NCBI GenBank assembly: GCA_965198175.1
Contig: OZ240245.1
Coordinates: 480,001-544,000 of the forward strand
Length of the DNA: 64,000 nucleotides
Reading direction: 5' to 3'
From: Candidatus Poribacteria bacterium
Lineage (GTDB): Bacteria; Poribacteria; WGA-4E; PCPOR2b
Made by a program: the position numbers. Below are positions 33,001 through 42,000 of this stretch, piece after piece (position 1 is the first letter of the stretch; each line of letters starts with the position of its first letter).

Positions 33001-36000
33001 GTCCGATTCGATTTCGAGTGCGCTCATGATCGTTTTGCGCTGTTGACTCAGGAATTTGAGCGTGTTAGAGAATTCGCTAAACGAGCAAAGGGAGAGGCTG
33101 AAAAGCGTGCTATCCGCATGGTACGCGATACTATCAAACAGGAATGGAAAGCTGCAAAAGCGAAACTCAAAAGTACGGAAAGCGCCCTCAAACACGCAGG
33201 GCTCGACTCGCATCAGGCGAAAGTCCGACTGATTCAGTTGGCGATCGAAAATCGAGCGGTAGCCATGGTCGATCTAAATGCCTTTGATGATATGCTAGAC
33301 CTTGAGCCTCTGCGTAGGATATTGATGAACGATTCCATTAAGGTGCTTCACAACGCGAATTTTGACCTCCAGATGCTCTGGTCAATCGGTCTTGAAATCG
33401 GGGGGAACATCTTCGATACGATGATAGCGGCGAGGTTGCTCAATCCGAAGGAGAGTGCTGCTTTAGATGACGTTGTCAAGCAGTACTTTTCTGCAGGCTC
33501 AAGGCAGGCGCTGTCGAAGGCTGAGCAGTTGAGCGATTGGAGCGGCGATTTGACTGATTCGCAATGGCTCTATGCTGCGCGCGATGTGTCGGTACTTTTG
33601 CCACTACGAAAGCGGCTTAAATCCGAGTTGATTCGCGAAAATCTTACCCAGATTGTCAAGATTGAGTTTGACTGTGTGAGAGCAACTGCGGAGATGGAGT
33701 ATGTAGGAATGAAGGTTGATTCCGCTAAAGCAGACACCTACCGACGTCGCGTCGAAGCCCAAATGGCAAAACTTCGATCAGCTTTATACGGTTACCTGGG
33801 CGAAATCAGTCTGACCAGCCCAAAACAGCTCAAAATGGCTTTCGCCGGAATCGGTGTCGGTGTTGAGAGTACAGCTAGACGCGCGTTGTGGCAATTGACT
33901 GCGGCGCATCCGAGCATACCGCTGTTGTTGGCGTACAAGAAGCTATCCACCCTAATATCCGTCTGCCTTGAGCCTCTGCCCCGATGCGCTTCTACCAAAA
34001 CCGGTCGTGTCCATGCGAGTTATTGGCAGCTTGGCACCGCAACGGGGCGATTTTCCTGCTCGGGTCCAAATTTCCAGCAGGTGCCTCGGGACTTGGACGT
34101 ACGGGCTTGTTTTGTCGCTGAAGAGGACAATAAACTGGTCATCGCAGATTATTCACAGATTGAGTTGCGGGTTGCAGCAGAAGTCAGCGGAGATCGGAAA
34201 ATGACTCAAGCTTACCAGAACGGTGAAGATCTACACACGTTAACCGCTTCGCTGGTTCAAAAGATACCGCTTGAGGAGGTGACCCCCGAACAGCGTCAGG
34301 CAGCTAAAGCGATTAACTTCGGTTTGATTTTCGGGATGGGTGCGAAAGGGTTGAGGTACTCGGCGAAGCAGAATTACGGCGTGGAAATGACTTTGGGGGA
34401 AGCAGAGACTTTTCGGAATCGCTACTTCGAGTCATATTCGGGAATACGAGCGTGGCATCGGAGGTCCGGATGGGCTTTAAGGTACACGAATGAACAGAGA
34501 ACCCTCTGTGGTCGGCGGTTCGTCTGGGACGAAGCGGCTTCGTTTACAATCTTTATTAACAGGCAGGTACAAGGTACAGCAGCCGACATTATCAAGATTG
34601 CGCTGTCTAAGCTGATATTCGCTTTGAAGGACACCGGGGCGAAAATCATCGCTATGATTCACGATGAAATCATCATTGAAGTCTCTCAAGCCAACGCTGT
34701 TGAGGCAGCTCGGGTCCTGCAAGAGACGATGGAAGCTGCAGGTAGAGAAGTTCTAAAGAAGGTTCCAGTCGTGGCAGAAGCCCGCATCGCTGACAGTTGG
34801 GCGGAAAAGAAAAAATAGACATGTAATGCAGACGCTCATCTTCGCTATGCTCACCCACAGTCTTTCGTGTCAGTCTTGGTTTGTATCATCTTTCTTGACA
34901 AGTTTAATGTGGTATGTTATATGGGTTAGTTGAGAAAGAATAAGCCCACGCGGGCGCGTCAATCCCAGAAGGGACTTCAATTCCAGCCGTCCACTCTGAG
35001 AGCGTTATTGGGGTTGGGATGAGTAAAGAGAGGTGTTTATGACAGGGATGTTCGATCTATCCGGACGAGTTGCAGTTGTATCGGGAGCAGCCAGCGGCAT
35101 GGGTCGTGCGATGTCGCTGGCTTTGGCAGAGGCAGGCGCGGACTTGATGCTTGCGGATATTAACTTGGCTGGTGCGGGGAAGACCGCTGACGAAATTTCG
35201 GTGATGGGACGCCGTGCCATTGCCGTTGATTGTGATGTCTCACGTCCGGATCAAATCCGCGCGATGTTTGCACGAGTGGACGAAGAATTTGGTCGGATCG
35301 ATTTCTTGGGCAATGTTGCGGGCGAAGCGACCAGAGCGAAACCGGAGGTTATCTCGTTAGAAGACGTTGAACAGACTTGGCGCAATCTTGTCTATGGTCG
35401 GTTCTGTTGTTGTCAGGAAGCCGGGCGGCGGATGCTTGCTGCTGGTAATGGGAGCATTGTAAGTCTCGGTTCTCTGGCGAGCATCACGGGTATGGGCCGC
35501 GGCCACATCGCATATAGTATGGCAATGGGTGCGGTGGTTCAAATGACACGAGAACTTAGCACCGAATGGTCGGGGCGCGGTGTGCGTGTTAATGCAATTT
35601 TACCGGCGCAAGTTTTGAACCCAGGGTTGCAGATACGCATCGACGCCGATCCTCGAATTAAGGAGCGGTTCCTCAGCGGCATTCCAATGGGACGATTCGG
35701 CAGTCCTGACGATATCCGTGGTCTAGCGGTATTTCTCGCATCGGATGCGTCGTCATGGATTACCGGTGCGATTATTCCGATGGATGGCGGCAACTTGGCG
35801 ATGAACGCCGGCGGTTCAGTCGGCAGTGAAGTTTTTGATGAGTGAGAACATCAACACGGTGTGTTCCTAGATAACCCCCATACAGAGGTTTTGAATAGCA
35901 CGCCGGCTTGAGCGATTCTTGGGTTCCCAGTTTATCTTCAAAGACAGGGTTTACCCTGATGTTGCGTCCGTACAGAATCGTGTATCACTCGTCCGCTGCT

Positions 36001-39000: not shown

Positions 39001-42000
39001 TAGCCAGCTACCGGCAATTGCTCTGCGAGCAAATCTGGCAGCCGATTGTTCGTCAGTTGGTCAAAAGATTTTTTGTGCCAAAATGCAGTGATGTTGTTTG
39101 ACATTTTGTCCTCCTCATCTTATTGGGTATTTCGTGTTGTGTGAGTGGTGATGTGTAAAGCATAACACGTGACGTGCGGGAATCTTCTCCGCCCCCTTGT
39201 TCACTTAACTATCTTCCTCGTATTCGCCTGTAATCTCCTTCCATTCTTTAGCGAGACGCCTTATCGAATAGTGTAAACGCGACTTCACAGTGCCTTCCGG
39301 GATGCCAATCTCAGCGGCGACCTCACGAAGGTTCATCTCTTTCTGATATACAAGGTGAAGCACCTCTCGTTTATCTTCGGGCAGTTCTTCAACCAGCCGC
39401 CAAAGCAAATTAGACTGCTCAGCTTGTTCCAGCATCACATCGGGGCCACGTAACGATGTGTCAATCATCCAATCTGGGTCGGGCACATAGTCGTCCGCAT
39501 CATCAAAATCATCCGGCGGTATTTCGAGGGGATGTTGCTTCCGCCGACGCAGGGTGCGCAGGTAATTAAGGGCGAGATTTGTAGCGATGCGGAAGAACCA
39601 TGCTTTGAAATTACCTCGACCCTCCCACCGCTCGGCGGAAGTCCAAATTCGCAAAAATGCCTCCTGAACCAAATCCTCGGCTGCACTTTCGTCCTGCACG
39701 ATGCGTATGATGTGTCTGCGGACGGACTCGCTATATCGTGCCCAAAGCGTTTCAAATGCCGCCGCATCGTGTTCACGGATCTTATCAATGAGAAATTGAT
39801 CGGATTGTATTATAAATGTCCCTCCGCTCACGGAAAAACCAGCTTTCGTTCGGCGATTTTTGGGTTCGCGCACCTCAATTGCTGGCGAAAGGCGGGGTAA
39901 TGGATTATCCGGTCAGCCTCCATTCAGGAGACTTACATTGTAAATGACACCGCAAGGGATTAATAAGTTCACAAGTTGAACGAAAAATTCAGCAGAACGT
40001 TGGTTGAGCGGGAGAACAAGGCGAGATAAAAGACGAAAGCGTTACTTATGTCGGTCGGTGAGAAAAACTGTTTGACACAATATAGGTTATTGTGCAATAA
40101 TGGTTGATGCCTGCCGAATCTATTCTAACTGAAAGCTGAAAGAAAATCTTCAGATGTCTAGTGCAGTTACAACGAAAAGGACAGAAGCCAAGTTTGAGTG
40201 CATCATACCAAGCTTAAATGCCAAGAGTGTTCCTGCCAGTATCGATTATTATGTAAAAGTGCTTGGCTTTAAGAAGGATTGGGACTGGGGCGATCCGCCA
40301 GGTTTTGGGTCTGTATCAGGCGACAACTGTTCCATTATGCTATGCCAGGGTGGACAGGGGCAAGCTGAAGCCTGGATTATGATAGGTGTCGAGGAATTGT
40401 ATGAGGAATACAAGGCGAGCGGTGCTACAATTCGAGAGGTGCCAACAAACTATCCTTGGGCGTACGAGATGAGAGTGGAAGACCTTGACAATCACGTTTT
40501 ACGGTTTGGGTCGGAACCCAAATCAGATGAATCTCATTCATTGTGAATTCCTTCTTGCGATCGCCTCGATCCCTTTTGAATTACCTGAATGATGTGTGTT
40601 AAGATATCAATCCGTTATCGGTTGTTTCACAGGAAAAATTCGACACAATTATATCGCCACCCTGCGCTGACCTCGAAAGGAGGGCGCAACGATGTTTAAT
40701 GGCAAGTCATCCTGTCGTCTGAAAAAGCGCGCATCAGGTAGCTGTCGTTTTTCTCGCCGATCGTTTATCAAGGGCGCAGCGGGATTTGCCACCTCAACGC
40801 TCGTTGTAAATCGGTTTGCGTTGTCGGGCGAAGCCTTTATGGAGTACCTTCCCTATGACTCAACACGAGACGCTCACAAAGGCTTCAGTTATGGCTGGAT
40901 TGAACACCATCATCCATCGGTCGATCCAACGGGCGAAAAATTCGTCTTTGTTCGGCTAAAATATCCGGGCGGAGACTGGCACACGAATGTTGTCGATTAC
41001 TGGCGTTGGCCCTCTGATGTCAAATTTGCGGAAAAATTGGCACAACAAACATCAATTGATGTTGAACTTCATGAACAGGCACAATATGTTTCAATTGATG
41101 ACCCTCATCTTTTCAACTATCCTTTCATTTTCATGACAGGTCACCTGGACATCCGCTTTTCGGCTGATCAAGTTCGGCAACTGCGAGAGTATCTTGAACG
41201 CGGCGGTTTTATCCACGCCGAAGATTGTGATATTCGAATTCGACATGGGGGTGGTCGCATGCGCTCGTCAATACATCGTCTGATGAAGCGTGTCTACCCA
41301 GACAAGAAATTTGAGCGTCTCGACATGAGCCATCCAATCTATCACACCCTTTATCATCACGATGACTATCTCGGTGGCGACAAGTTGATTCCGTCTGTGT
41401 GTGATTTTGATGAGGCAATCATGGTCGACGATCGCATCGTTTTCTACTTCTGTCCGAGCGATCTCAACTGTGCGTGGGAAGGTAAGGTATGTGAGCCGGG
41501 AGGCGAGGAACAACGCAGATGGGCATTTGAGCAGGGGATGAACGTCGTAGCGTATGCCCTCAGCCAGTAGGTGTGCCCGGTGTATCCGTTTAATATTGAG
41601 CGTTAGTTAACCGTACATTCTGCATCATAAATCCCGCTGAGAGCCGACCAAAGCGCATCGCACATTTTCTCACAGGCGCGAAAAGCAGCAGCTTGTTCCT
41701 CTGGTGAGAGTTGCTGCATTCGATGAAGCAGTTTTTCTGATTCGTGCTCATTATGAGAGTGGATTTCAAAGTAGGGTTCCACTTCATCCGGCAGTTGGTA
41801 AAACGCTTTCAACCCTTCGAGCTTAGACTGGGACGTGGCGGGCTGTTGGGCTTCAAAGGCATAAAGCGCACCCAGAGCAGTTTCAGGGTTTTCCCAAAGC
41901 GTCCGTGCGACGCCAACCAGATTTTTCACCTGCGGAAGATGGGCTTCGCCAACGTGGGTTCCTAGTCCTTGTGCAAAGCCTTCCCACAGTTCGAGATGTT

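Follow-up and report, generated by a model that had tools for sequence, protein, structure and literature searches.

A single-chain miniature RNA polymerase encoded with its own ECF-type sigma factor in Poribacteria and other phyla: a candidate second holoenzyme

Introduction

In canonical RNA polymerase (RNAP), sigma region 2 docks on the clamp helices. Sigma region 4 normally sits on the beta flap and, to our knowledge, does so in every solved holoenzyme. Natural full-length fusions of beta and beta' are present in Helicobacter and Wolbachia. The operons of ECF sigma factors normally carry an anti-sigma gene directly after the sigma gene.

Smaller single-chain enzymes have also been described. 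YonO of the Bacillus subtilis prophage SPbeta and the YonO-like proteins are single-chain two-barrel RNAPs, about 100 kDa in size, that occur in bacterial genomes (PMC5467207; PMC2919709), and PMC5467207 presents YonO as prophage-borne and only very distantly homologous to multisubunit RNAPs. Orf6 of the yeast cytoplasmic linear plasmids (virus-like elements) is an Rpb2::Rpb1-like fusion (PMC2919709; PMC6211774), which PMC2919709 derives from yeast Rpb1/Rpb2.

We analysed a window of 64,000 nucleotides from the genome of a sponge-symbiont member of the Poribacteria. This genome contains normal rpoB and rpoC genes and, beside this normal RNA polymerase, a two-gene cassette made of a sigma factor and a mini RNAP. 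A literature search found no published description of a sigma-coupled single-chain mini RNAP cassette.

Results

Organization of the cassette

Both genes are on the minus strand. The polymerase gene (35985..39104; ATG start, stop codon within the span) encodes a single beta-beta' chain of 1039 aa and is separated from the sigma gene by 100 nt (39105..39204, minus strand, from the sigma stop to the polymerase start), in which a ribosome-binding site, GAGGAGG, is located at 39116-39110. The longest ORF of the ECF-type sigma gene (39205..39873) has 222 aa from the GTG at 39873, although the GTG at 39831 (208 aa), which was the start given in the survey's finding, is the likelier one. An ECF-type promoter-like element, TGAAC-N14-CGGTGTC, is located upstream of the sigma gene (39946..39971, minus strand).

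Architecture of the mini RNAP

The survey's finding described the polymerase as pared-down beta and beta' cores in one chain, and Pfam, PDB sequence and fold matches to beta and beta' on the single ORF bear this out. The Pfam domains RNA_pol_Rpb2_3 (aa 147-204, E 2.1e-08), Rpb2_6 (best stretch 326-459, E 4.5e-43) and Rpb1_2 (aa 699-763, E 1.1e-14) were all found on the 1039-aa chain, and its AF2 model had a pLDDT of 83.9 and a pTM of 0.80. The mass had been put at a quarter of that of RpoB plus RpoC; this was wrong, since 1039 aa in one chain against the 1305 and 1422 aa of the genome's own RpoB and RpoC (2727 aa in two chains) corresponds to about 38%.

Structural alignment and BLASTP against the genome's own RpoB delimited a beta-like half, aa 1-547 (37464..39104, minus strand), which keeps the N-terminal strand motif, the fork domain, the beta double-psi barrel with the motifs PFLEHND (228-234), TFEDG (305-309) and GDKIGNRHGTKG (329-340), and the C-terminal clamp part, whereas the flap, the bulk of the lobe and protrusion, and the external domain are deleted. 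With VIA-align, the model of residues 1-547 was superposed on residues 22-1165 of the beta subunit 8i23_C (Z 26.9, rmsd 3.3, 527 residues aligned). The BLASTP matches to RpoB were 136-204/471-550, 212-255/622-665, 276-329/757-816 and 329-523/1060-1263.

The beta'-like half, aa 548-1039 (35988..37463, minus strand), was delimited in the same way against the genome's own RpoC. Its counterpart in beta' starts just past the Zn ribbon and reaches the bridge helix, after which a short C-terminal tail completes the half. The motifs NANFDGD (740-746) and GLREG (966-970) lie in this half. Its top structural match was PDB 5zx3, the sigma-H holoenzyme of M. tuberculosis: residues 5-432 of the half model (aa 552-979) were aligned by VIA-align with 91-867 of the beta' chain 5zx3_D (Z 23.2, 405 residues, rmsd 12.1). 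The range covered on E. coli 4mey_D was 101-796, and BLASTP matched residues 290-535 of RpoC.

The clamp-helix hairpin and the bridge helix, both claimed previously, were recovered in the alignment to RpoC and as helices in the structure model. The hairpin, aa 584-627 (37224..37355, minus strand), consists of helices 584-601 and 606-627 and aligns with the two clamp helices of RpoC from residue 290; its residues N593, P605, L608 and L616 were invariant among 30 homologues. It is followed by a 20-residue gap relative to RpoC at the position of the rudder. The bridge helix, aa 957-987 (36144..36236, minus strand), is a 31-residue helix that includes GLREG, and the region 920-971 gave a weak BLASTP match to RpoC 749-802. 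Only about 50 residues follow this helix, and the trigger loop is absent. By alignment to the genome's own subunits and by the structural match, the flap, Zn ribbon, rudder and trigger loop of the canonical enzyme have no counterpart in the mini RNAP.

Comparison with described polymerases

Comparison of the mini RNAP with canonical RpoB/RpoC showed that two double-psi barrels, the fork domain, the clamp helices, the bridge helix and the catalytic motifs are common to both, and that its similarity to beta (E 8.7e-46) and beta' (E 2.1e-18) is far above that of phage single-chain enzymes. It differs from the canonical enzyme in lacking the jaw as well as the modules listed above, in showing no sign of needing alpha or omega, and in being encoded by an accessory gene; it also scored far under the NCBIfam cut-offs for rpoB (178 vs 801 bits) and rpoC (76 vs 963 bits). 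The full-length beta::beta' fusions (NCBIfam NF011417 and NF007172) have the same order of beta and beta' in one polypeptide. However, those are entire housekeeping enzymes, about 2800-2900 aa long, against whose profiles the mini RNAP scored 158 and 148 bits (cut-offs 4632 and 5372), and the genome that encodes the mini RNAP also has rpoB and rpoC as separate genes.

Phage single-chain beta-beta' polymerases from IMG/VR (e.g. L060 and L062) are also one-frame fusions, with matches that span residues ~96-976 of the query, but they are a separate family on viral contigs, with 21-25% identity and matched stretches of ~3.7-4.6 kb. The only PHROGs matches of the mini RNAP were to the full-length beta and beta' profiles, and no PADLOC match was found. 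On the published descriptions of YonO, the mini RNAP is set apart by its closeness to bacterial beta/beta' and by its position among ordinary chromosomal genes; moreover, a sigma gene is always alongside it (45/45 uncut loci). Yeast Orf6, as described in the literature cited above, resembles the mini RNAP in the order of the fused large subunits, in the deletion of about half of the coding sequence and in the retention of the protrusion base, the fork, and the hybrid-binding and switch regions. By the same descriptions it is a eukaryotic plasmid enzyme, borne by a mobile element and without a sigma factor, whereas the mini RNAP is bacterial, chromosomal and paired with an ECF sigma.

Sigma factor and promoter

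The sigma factor consists of region 2 (Sigma70_r2, E 1.3e-18), an acidic linker and region 4 (E 1.5e-12), without region 3, and scored 127 bits against TIGR02937 (cut-off 42.9). It is thus, with its GAAC...GTC-type promoter, a standard sigma2-linker-sigma4 protein like that of a canonical ECF holoenzyme. Its region 2.2 keeps the usual D..QE core-binding motif, with D53 and Q56 invariant. The orthologues form a single clade apart from the 35 other ECF sigmas of the same genome, and no anti-sigma gene was found in the neighbourhood of the locus. The 5' leader is ~75-115 nt long in the present genus and ~15-20 nt elsewhere.

In the promoter-like element, GAAC is the -35-like part and GTC, inside CGGTGTC, the -10-like part, and the spacing is that of ordinary ECF promoters. 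Our recount over 46 cases (45 loci and the present window) found the motif ahead of sigma in 41 and, on the reverse strand, in none, close to the earlier figures (38/43 and 0/43). Among 40 aligned sites, the T before GAAC, the C after GGTGT and the C before GG were invariant or nearly so. The divergent Spirochaetales locus keeps the standard ECF architecture (TGAAC-N16-CGTCA). No sigma-70-type promoter was found on the same (minus) strand. A second promoter of the cassette type was not found in the present genome or in five Asp-type genomes (six in total), which agrees with the previous statement that the only target was the cassette's own. Contigs from the RNA libraries of two studies fell on both genes, and one contig in each study bridged the sigma-polymerase junction; this evidence is weak, as DNA carry-over is possible.

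Distribution and joint loss

The mini RNAP was found at 47 GTDB loci in six named phyla. As the survey's finding had it, a dedicated ECF-type sigma accompanies it across phyla: in 45 of the 47 loci an orthologous sigma gene precedes it in the same orientation, the other two being cut at the polymerase start, and the divergent Spirochaetales member has the same arrangement. In 17 of 44 other loci the two genes overlap or are separated by at most 18 nt, and 4-nt overlaps are frequent. Comparison of the flanks found no third gene common to the loci, as previously reported. Since the copies cluster by phylum in the tree, the distribution is patchy and not visibly mobile.

The polymerase is carried by 33 of 176 Poribacteria genomes when the present one is counted (32/176 in the earlier count). 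Sigma orthologues (E <= 1e-72) were found in 32 of the 176, and 31 of these 32 also hold the polymerase; the remaining one, G056, has a sigma gene with in-frame stops and no polymerase. A sigma fragment alone is left in G054 and a polymerase remnant alone in G031, and G049 is a further related genome with a pseudogene or remnant of the cassette. Within the phylum, the two genes thus come and go as a pair.

Catalytic residues and selection

The catalytic metal loop NANFDGD (aa 740-746; 36867..36887, minus strand) has Asn in place of the first Asp of the triad, as had been noticed. Of 120 homologues, 110 have D here and 10 have N. PMC2919709, in the passages concerned, lists eight residues common to all two-barrel RNAPs; seven of these are in the present copy, each kept by at least 108 of 120 family members. 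The active-site Lys, Arg and Pro are kept in 114-120 of 120. Arg246 is Arg in 110/110 Asp-type sequences and is lost in 4 of the 10 Asn-type relatives. In the present genus, Asn was found in 8/8 sequences and Arg246 was Cys in 4/8.

Among four genomes of this genus, dN/dS was 0.18-0.27 at dS 0.2-0.5 with an intact ORF, as compared to 0.13-0.19 in the Asp clade. In both clades constraint was strongest on the two barrels, with omega values of 0.13 and 0.16 in the Asn clade versus 0.21-0.26 elsewhere. These ratios indicate that the gene is under purifying selection despite the Asn and Arg changes. Given the loss of the first metal-binding Asp, catalysis by the present copy is probably weak or altered, with the architecture kept.

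Discussion

Our preferred reading, which we hold tentatively, is that the sigma factor together with the single chain makes up a second holoenzyme of miniature size. The identity of the enzyme, the retained clamp helices on which sigma could dock, the pairing, the joint gain and loss, the single sigma clade, the promoter, the selection and, weakly, the RNA-library contigs speak for it. Other observations speak against it. With the flap, the Zn ribbon and the rudder deleted, the usual geometry for joint reading of the -35 and -10 elements is left without visible support, and the ordinary ECF spacing matches the requirement of the host core paired with this sigma. Since no second promoter was found in the six genomes, a purely sigma-directed enzyme would be without known output. 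The Asn at the first catalytic Asp and the loss of Arg246 in 4 of 10 Asn-type relatives also count against it, as does the fact that E. coli beta' R275, E295 and A302, described as critical to the binding of sigma-70, would align with non-identical residues or a gap.

Some of these points would suit a rather unlikely alternative in which an ordinary ECF sigma works on the host core only, its sole job being to turn on its own operon, and the single chain is a sigma-free effector, as is thought for YonO-type enzymes. Its templates would not be marked by the cassette promoter and could be single-stranded DNA, RNA, nicked DNA or foreign DNA. Standard promoter architecture even in the divergent Spirochaetales locus, the missing flap and Zn ribbon that position sigma region 4, the fact that no regulon turned up in the six genomes and the usual core-binding motif with its invariant D53 and Q56 are all consistent with this. 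However, a sigma-free polymerase would be expected to come sometimes under other regulators, whereas sigma is upstream in every uncut locus and the two genes decay jointly; the frequent 4-nt overlaps are typical of mutually binding proteins, the clamp helices are kept with invariant residues, and nothing would brake a positively autoregulated ECF sigma that has no anti-sigma.

The absence of an anti-sigma gene, the retained clamp helices and the position of the polymerase gene, which directly follows the ECF sigma where an anti-sigma gene would be and is often translationally coupled to it, could also mean that the single chain is mainly a sigma- or DNA-binding regulator, a decoy core that keeps sigma off the host core, with catalysis secondary or, as in the present genus, lost. 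The Asn and Cys substitutions of this genus, in an intact ORF with dN/dS of ~0.2, agree with such a role. We consider it improbable, because the full Asp triad in 110/120 homologues and the nearly universal active-site Lys, Arg and Pro are hard to square with a mere decoy, and even the Asn clade shows its strongest constraint in the barrels. The Asn variant, the remodelled sigma leader of the present genus and the remnants in G049, G031, G054 and G056 might instead mean that the cassette is a decaying relic, without any function in this genome today; this is very improbable in view of the intact ORFs, the low dN/dS over dS 0.2-0.5, the good ribosome-binding site and the RNA-library contigs on both genes.

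The single chain is best read as bacterial beta and beta' that were fused and stripped of almost all peripheral domains. If the two proteins do form a miniature holoenzyme, sigma region 2 would dock on its retained clamp helices, so that sigma would have the mini polymerase, not the host core, as its partner, and this two-protein holoenzyme would open the ECF-type promoter ahead of the sigma gene and transcribe both genes as one unit. The pair may therefore be autoregulatory, and we propose that, through co-transcription of sigma and polymerase from its own promoter, the module reinforces its own expression.

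The mini polymerase gene and its product

The mini polymerase is encoded on the minus strand (35985-39104) by an ORF that starts with ATG, is preceded by a GAGGAGG ribosome-binding site and specifies 1039 amino acids. Our Pfam searches placed RNA_pol_Rpb2_3 (aa 147-204, E 2.1e-08), Rpb2_6 (best stretch aa 326-459, E 4.5e-43) and Rpb1_2 (aa 699-763, E 1.1e-14) on this one chain, which bears out the survey's finding that beta and beta' cores are fused on a single ORF. A sequence search of the PDB matched bacterial beta (8i23_C) in four stretches with an E-value of 8.7e-46 and bacterial beta' (8i23_D) over query residues 638-804 with an E-value of 2.1e-18. 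The protein scored 177.9 bits against the NCBIfam rpoB model TIGR02013 (cut-off 801.15) and 76.5 bits against the rpoC model TIGR02386 (cut-off 963.5); as these scores are far under the cut-offs, its sequence identifies it as no housekeeping subunit. Elsewhere the same genome has an ordinary rpoB gene for a protein of 1305 aa and an ordinary rpoC gene for one of 1422 aa, and their products have the Pfam domains Rpb2_1/2/45 and Rpb1_1/3/4/5 that are absent from the mini polymerase. By length, the single chain represents 38% of beta plus beta', and not about a quarter of their mass as first estimated.

Retained and lost modules in the predicted structure

The AlphaFold2 model of the single chain, made with 30 homologues, was confident (pLDDT 83.9, pTM 0.80) and predicted a two-barrel fold with a bridge helix. 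The modelled beta half (residues 1-547) was superposed on residues 22-1165 of 8i23_C with a Z-score of 26.9 and an rmsd of 3.3 Å over 527 aligned residues. Alignment of this half to the genome's own RpoB paired residues 136-204 with 471-550 (the fork), 212-255 with 622-665 (PFLEHND), 276-329 with 757-816 and 329-523 with 1060-1263. The flap, RpoB residues ~816-1060, is without counterpart in the single chain, in which residues 315-329 directly bridge both sides, and most of RpoB residues 1-470 are also missing from this alignment. The beta flap tip, which would be the seat of sigma region 4 in a sigma-dependent holoenzyme, was not found.

A separate model of residues 548-1039, the beta' half, had a pLDDT of 75.5 and was superposed on residues 91-867 of 5zx3_D (Z 23.2, 405 residues, rmsd 12.1), a predicted span that begins just past the Zn ribbon and ends at the bridge helix; residues 101-796 were matched in E. 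coli 4mey_D. BLASTP aligned residues 586-796 with residues 290-535 of the genome's own RpoC, a segment comprising both clamp helices, a 20-residue gap at the place of the rudder and the barrel with the metal loop. In the model, helices 584-601 and 606-627 form the clamp-helix hairpin (584-627), whose counterpart in the alignment is the clamp-helix pair of the genome's own RpoC and which is a putative dock for sigma region 2. The predicted bridge helix is 31 residues long (957-987). Since only about 50 residues lie beyond it, the single chain has no trigger loop and no jaw.

Catalytic site and selection

PMC2919709 lists eight residues common to all two-barrel RNAPs, five of which correspond to D837, K979 and K987 in Rpb2 and to R446 and P448 in Rpb1. 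With equivalences made by motif, seven of the eight were present in the mini polymerase: D744, D746, D308, K331, K339, R707 and P709. The five that correspond to the named Rpb2 and Rpb1 residues (D308, K331, K339, R707 and P709) are kept by 108, 119, 114, 116 and 117 of 120 homologues, respectively. The metal-binding Asp triad of beta' type (NADFDGD, or DxDxD) is incomplete in the window, where the motif reads NANFDGD, with Asn742 at the first position and D744 and D746 kept. In the family, the first position is Asp in 110/120 homologues and Asn in 10/120, and the other two positions are conserved in 120/120.

Eight of the ten Asn-type proteins belong to the genus-level clade of this window. 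The nearest relatives of the other two homologues, P0030 and P0035, carry Asp at 89-90% identity, from which it follows that the change from Asp to Asn arose at least twice. Arg246, in the ANMMRQ motif, is Arg in 110/110 Asp-type proteins and Cys in four of the ten Asn-type proteins; the window copy has Arg. The dN/dS ratio was 0.18-0.27 among four genomes of the window's genus, which indicates purifying selection, and 0.13-0.19 in the Asp-type sister genus. In both clades the two barrels were the most constrained regions, with omega values of 0.13 and 0.16 in the window's clade. This purifying selection and the constraint on the barrels argue, at the level of sequence, that the window copy is neither a pseudogene nor a simple scaffold. 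Given what is generally known of the Asp triad, this copy is probably a weakened catalyst.

Pairing of the sigma and polymerase genes

The ECF-type sigma ORF (39205-39873, minus strand), with a likely GTG start at 39831, lies 100 bases upstream of the polymerase gene. It scored 127.2 bits against TIGR02937 (cut-off 42.9) and matched Pfam Sigma70_r2, Sigma70_r4 and Sigma70_ECF, which assigns it to the ECF (group 4) sigma factors, with regions 2 and 4 only. A neighbouring cognate anti-sigma gene is typical for the ECF family, though not obligatory. None was found beside this sigma gene: the polymerase is the gene that follows it, and no third gene is common to the 47 cassette loci from GTDB genomes.

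In our independent ORF and phmmer scan, 45 of the 47 loci had a sigma orthologue (E 1e-30 to 1e-131) upstream in the same orientation, and the remaining two (L035 and L046) were cut at the polymerase start; the count reported by the survey was thus reproduced. All-against-all clustering of the flank ORFs of these loci revealed nothing else in common beyond close kin, in agreement with the same survey. The sigma gene is intact in 44 loci. In 11 of these it overlaps the polymerase gene by 1 or 4 nt and in 6 the distance is 2-18 nt, and these two groups include nearly all of the non-poribacterial loci. The gap is 64-263 nt in 24 loci, and another gene or a long spacer lies between the two genes in three, namely an S9 peptidase-like gene of 801 aa (L033, 3233-5638), an alpha/beta hydrolase gene of 309 aa (L043, 5060-5989) and a 789-nt spacer (L015, 5212-6000).

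The results of the sigma search in 176 genomes of the phylum were two-peaked. An orthologue (E <= 1e-72, identity 56% or more) was present in 32 genomes, and the best match in the remaining genomes had an E-value of 4.9e-34 and an identity of 44% or less, with the exception of an 80-residue fragment in one genome (G054). The polymerase was also present in 31 of the 32 genomes with the orthologue; in the exception (G056) the sigma gene carries in-frame stops and the polymerase is absent. Sigma and polymerase are thus kept and lost together. In a FastTree phylogeny, the sigma orthologues of 25 loci formed one clade apart from the 35 other ECF sigmas of the genome, on a stem of 1.05 whose support value was obscured by rerooting. 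No sigma-polymerase fusion was found at E <= 1e-20 among longer proteins, which is weak evidence.

Leader and promoter of the sigma gene

A promoter-like TGAAC-N14-CGGTGTC is located in front of the sigma gene (39971-39946, minus strand), and no sigma-70-type promoter was seen there on that strand. The motif GAAC-N13-17-GGTGT was present within 650 nt ahead of the sigma gene body in 41/46 cases and on the other strand in 0/46. The five misses were L022, in which the sigma gene is frameshifted, L026 and L029, in which the contig begins at the sigma gene, and L039 and L041. Forty aligned sites gave the consensus tGAAC-N14-CGGTGTC followed by a short conserved stretch. In most phyla this stretch consists of a ribosome-binding site of GAGG type and the start codon of sigma, ~20 nt past the -10-like element, which makes for a very short leader.

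The leader is ~75-115 nt in the window's genus (39832-39945, minus strand; the same in loci L001-L003), where the ancestral sigma start region reads ATG TAA. It folds no better than shuffled sequence (z -0.74), and neither it nor the spacer matched a known RNA family in Rfam. The promoter-like element of the Spirochaetales locus is TGAAC-N16-CGTCA, and its comparison with the other sites reduces the common core to GAAC...GTC, which we take to be the ordinary shape of an ECF promoter.

Search for promoter targets

The survey had found no target except the cassette's own promoter, and our searches of this genome and of five Asp-type genomes, with crude ORF calls as gene calls, likewise yielded no further target of the sigma-type promoter. 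In this genome GAAC-N15-GGTGT occurs at 46 sites, compared with 32-48 for other spacers, so that there is no excess. Sites with spacers N14-16 were located in non-coding DNA in 23/121 cases when 22% of the genome was scored non-coding, which represents no enrichment. Four other strict sites were found, three of them antisense inside long ORFs and one ambiguous.

The sigma promoter is present in each of the five complete Asp-type genomes of the sister genus, which together have nine further strict sites. Two strict TGAAC-N14-CGGTGTC sites, both antisense inside long ORFs, recur between genomes: G044:C1:3890860-3890885 with G048:C1:4858744-4858769, and G044:C1:6074865-6074890 with G050:C1:6785218-6785243. 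These two sites are probably retained by coding constraint; alternatively, they may be antisense promoters.

Family, distribution and chromosomal context

A word-indexed search listed 120 full-length relatives of 990-1106 aa and 50-100% identity; where a name is given it is 'hypothetical protein', apart from one string of Pfam names. When 1.84 billion representatives were searched with a profile, lengths of 917-1101 aa were found for 68 of the 150 best matches, and most of the others were fragments. Members scored ~500-1660 bits and full-size fused beta-beta' proteins (1948-2522 aa) first appeared at 423 bits or less, and this gap makes the family discrete. The record titles of the 47 GTDB loci name Poribacteria, Planctomycetota, Chloroflexota, Hydrogenedentota, Latescibacterota and Armatimonadota, and a divergent Spirochaetales form adds a seventh phylum, so that the initial estimate of at least six bacterial phyla holds.

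A quick maximum-likelihood IQ-TREE phylogeny of 33 polymerases, from which 15 of the 47 loci had been left out as cut, split or near-duplicate, showed each phylum as one group with five label changes, the minimum possible; Poribacteria and Chloroflexota had 99% SH-aLRT support. This topology argues against horizontal transfer and a visibly mobile element, and the picture drawn from the sequences is of an old, mostly vertical inheritance with many losses. The polymerase matched in 33/176 genomes of the phylum; the match in G049 is frameshifted and that in G031 is a remnant of 155 residues. Two families carry it in 22/28 and 9/11 genomes, and the largest family in 0/112.

The neighbours in the window are ordinary chromosomal genes (SDR, PolA-like polymerase, glyoxalase, DUF4159 and SMC). 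The PolA-like gene (32620-34818, plus strand) encodes a 732-aa family A DNA polymerase with 3'-5' exonuclease and polymerase domains, without a Pfam-recognised 5'-3' exonuclease and with ~190 first residues that match nothing. It is on the opposite strand, with ~1.2 kb separating its end from the mini polymerase gene's 3' end, and its place next to the cassette is not conserved among other phyla. An IS1595-family transposase gene (26552-27436, plus strand), which overlaps the end of a KilA-N gene (27393-28202, minus strand), is located ~8 kb away. Ankyrin-repeat proteins are encoded near the cassette in the window (31949-32392, plus strand) and in the Latescibacterota locus L021 (2774-4529); they are probably unrelated symbiont features. 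The window also encodes a BT4734-like N-terminal domain protein (50571-51437, minus strand) and a B12-binding radical SAM protein (48572-50017, minus strand).

The flanks of 16 diverse loci (73 ORFs scanned of 151 flank ORFs listed) were unrelated to each other and metabolic, apart from an integrase fragment (L044) and a type I methylase with a SLOG protein (L015). The polymerase had no match in PADLOC, and in PHROGs it matched only full-length beta and beta' profiles. Plasmid records contained canonical rpoB/rpoC only, none covering 80% or more of the query, and these searches and the flank scan gave no support to a mobile-element or defence context. Viral contigs had no member closer than 36% identity, values of 57-60% being reached solely over short segments. 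By its chromosomal flanks and its close match to bacterial beta (E 8.7e-46), the mini polymerase appears distinct from YonO-like prophage RNAPs, for which a prophage or mobile-element context and remote beta/beta' similarity are characteristic. Single-frame beta-beta' fusions of IMG/VR (L060, L062 and about 30 others) match query residues ~96-976 at 21-25% identity over 3.7-4.6 kb and, by sequence, form a separate phage-borne family of fused RNAPs.

Expression

Metatranscriptome contigs from two studies match both genes. Runs X10 and X11 (near-identical) gave short contigs inside the polymerase and sigma genes, one of them spanning the junction (39062-39228), and run X21, from a relative with ~7% differences, gave a 1953-nt contig across 38073-39997. 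Parts of the polymerase gene were without contig cover. In run X22 the depth was 72 on sigma and ~8-10 on the polymerase, values that are not readable as expression levels. These RNA-library contigs, in which DNA may be present and which show neither transcript ends nor levels, give a weak hint that the cassette is expressed.

Discussion

The strict phylum-spanning pairing of the two genes, their frequent translational coupling, their joint decay and the retained clamp helices lead us to consider it likely that sigma and the single chain are physical partners. In its simplest form, this partnership would be a holoenzyme of two proteins acting on the promoter of the cassette itself. We give this slightly less than an even chance: the site that would hold sigma region 4 has been lost, the ordinary ECF promoter geometry suits the host core and there is no visible output. 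That geometry is what the main rival would need, in which the host core is the partner of sigma and the single chain acts as an effector independently of sigma; we regard this as unlikely, though still to be reckoned with. The single chain could also be a decoy core occupying the anti-sigma position, a reading that gains in attraction for the Asn clade and that we find improbable overall.

The two-protein holoenzyme leads to a broader proposal, which we put forward tentatively and with somewhat less confidence than the holoenzyme itself. The cassette would be an autonomous second transcription machine, made of a ~115-kDa cellular-type single chain and a private ECF sigma. It would dispense with alpha, omega, flap and trigger loop when initiating from its own promoter, would have been passed on mostly by vertical descent in seven or more bacterial phyla and would act on templates that are not promoter-marked in the host chromosome.

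All transcription in cells is generally taken to depend on a single multisubunit enzyme of ~400 kDa. An autonomous machine of the proposed kind would be the smallest sigma-dependent RNA polymerase known. A 2020 overview (PMC7281927) tabulates single-chain two-barrel RNAPs solely for phages, including prophages, and fungal plasmids, none of them sigma-using, and the main text of the ECF classification (PMC7826278) nowhere mentions an RNA-polymerase neighbour. A pruned beta-beta' fusion that is chromosomal and sigma-linked was described neither in the literature covered by full-text searches, mostly outside subscription journals, nor in passages of PMC7826278, PMC7281927, PMC5467207 and PMC2919709.

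The role that a bacterium would have for a second polymerase whose sole recognisable promoter is its own is a puzzle. The clade with Asn in place of Asp offers a natural experiment in which the catalytic metal site is altered. If the proposal is true, structural and single-molecule studies would gain a minimal model from nature, and the cassette could be used as an orthogonal transcription system of compact size. An enzyme of 1039 aa that is chromosomal, sigma-linked and close to bacterial beta/beta' would then reveal the parts of RNA polymerase that are indispensable for sigma-dependent initiation; the flap, Zn ribbon, rudder and trigger loop would not be among them.
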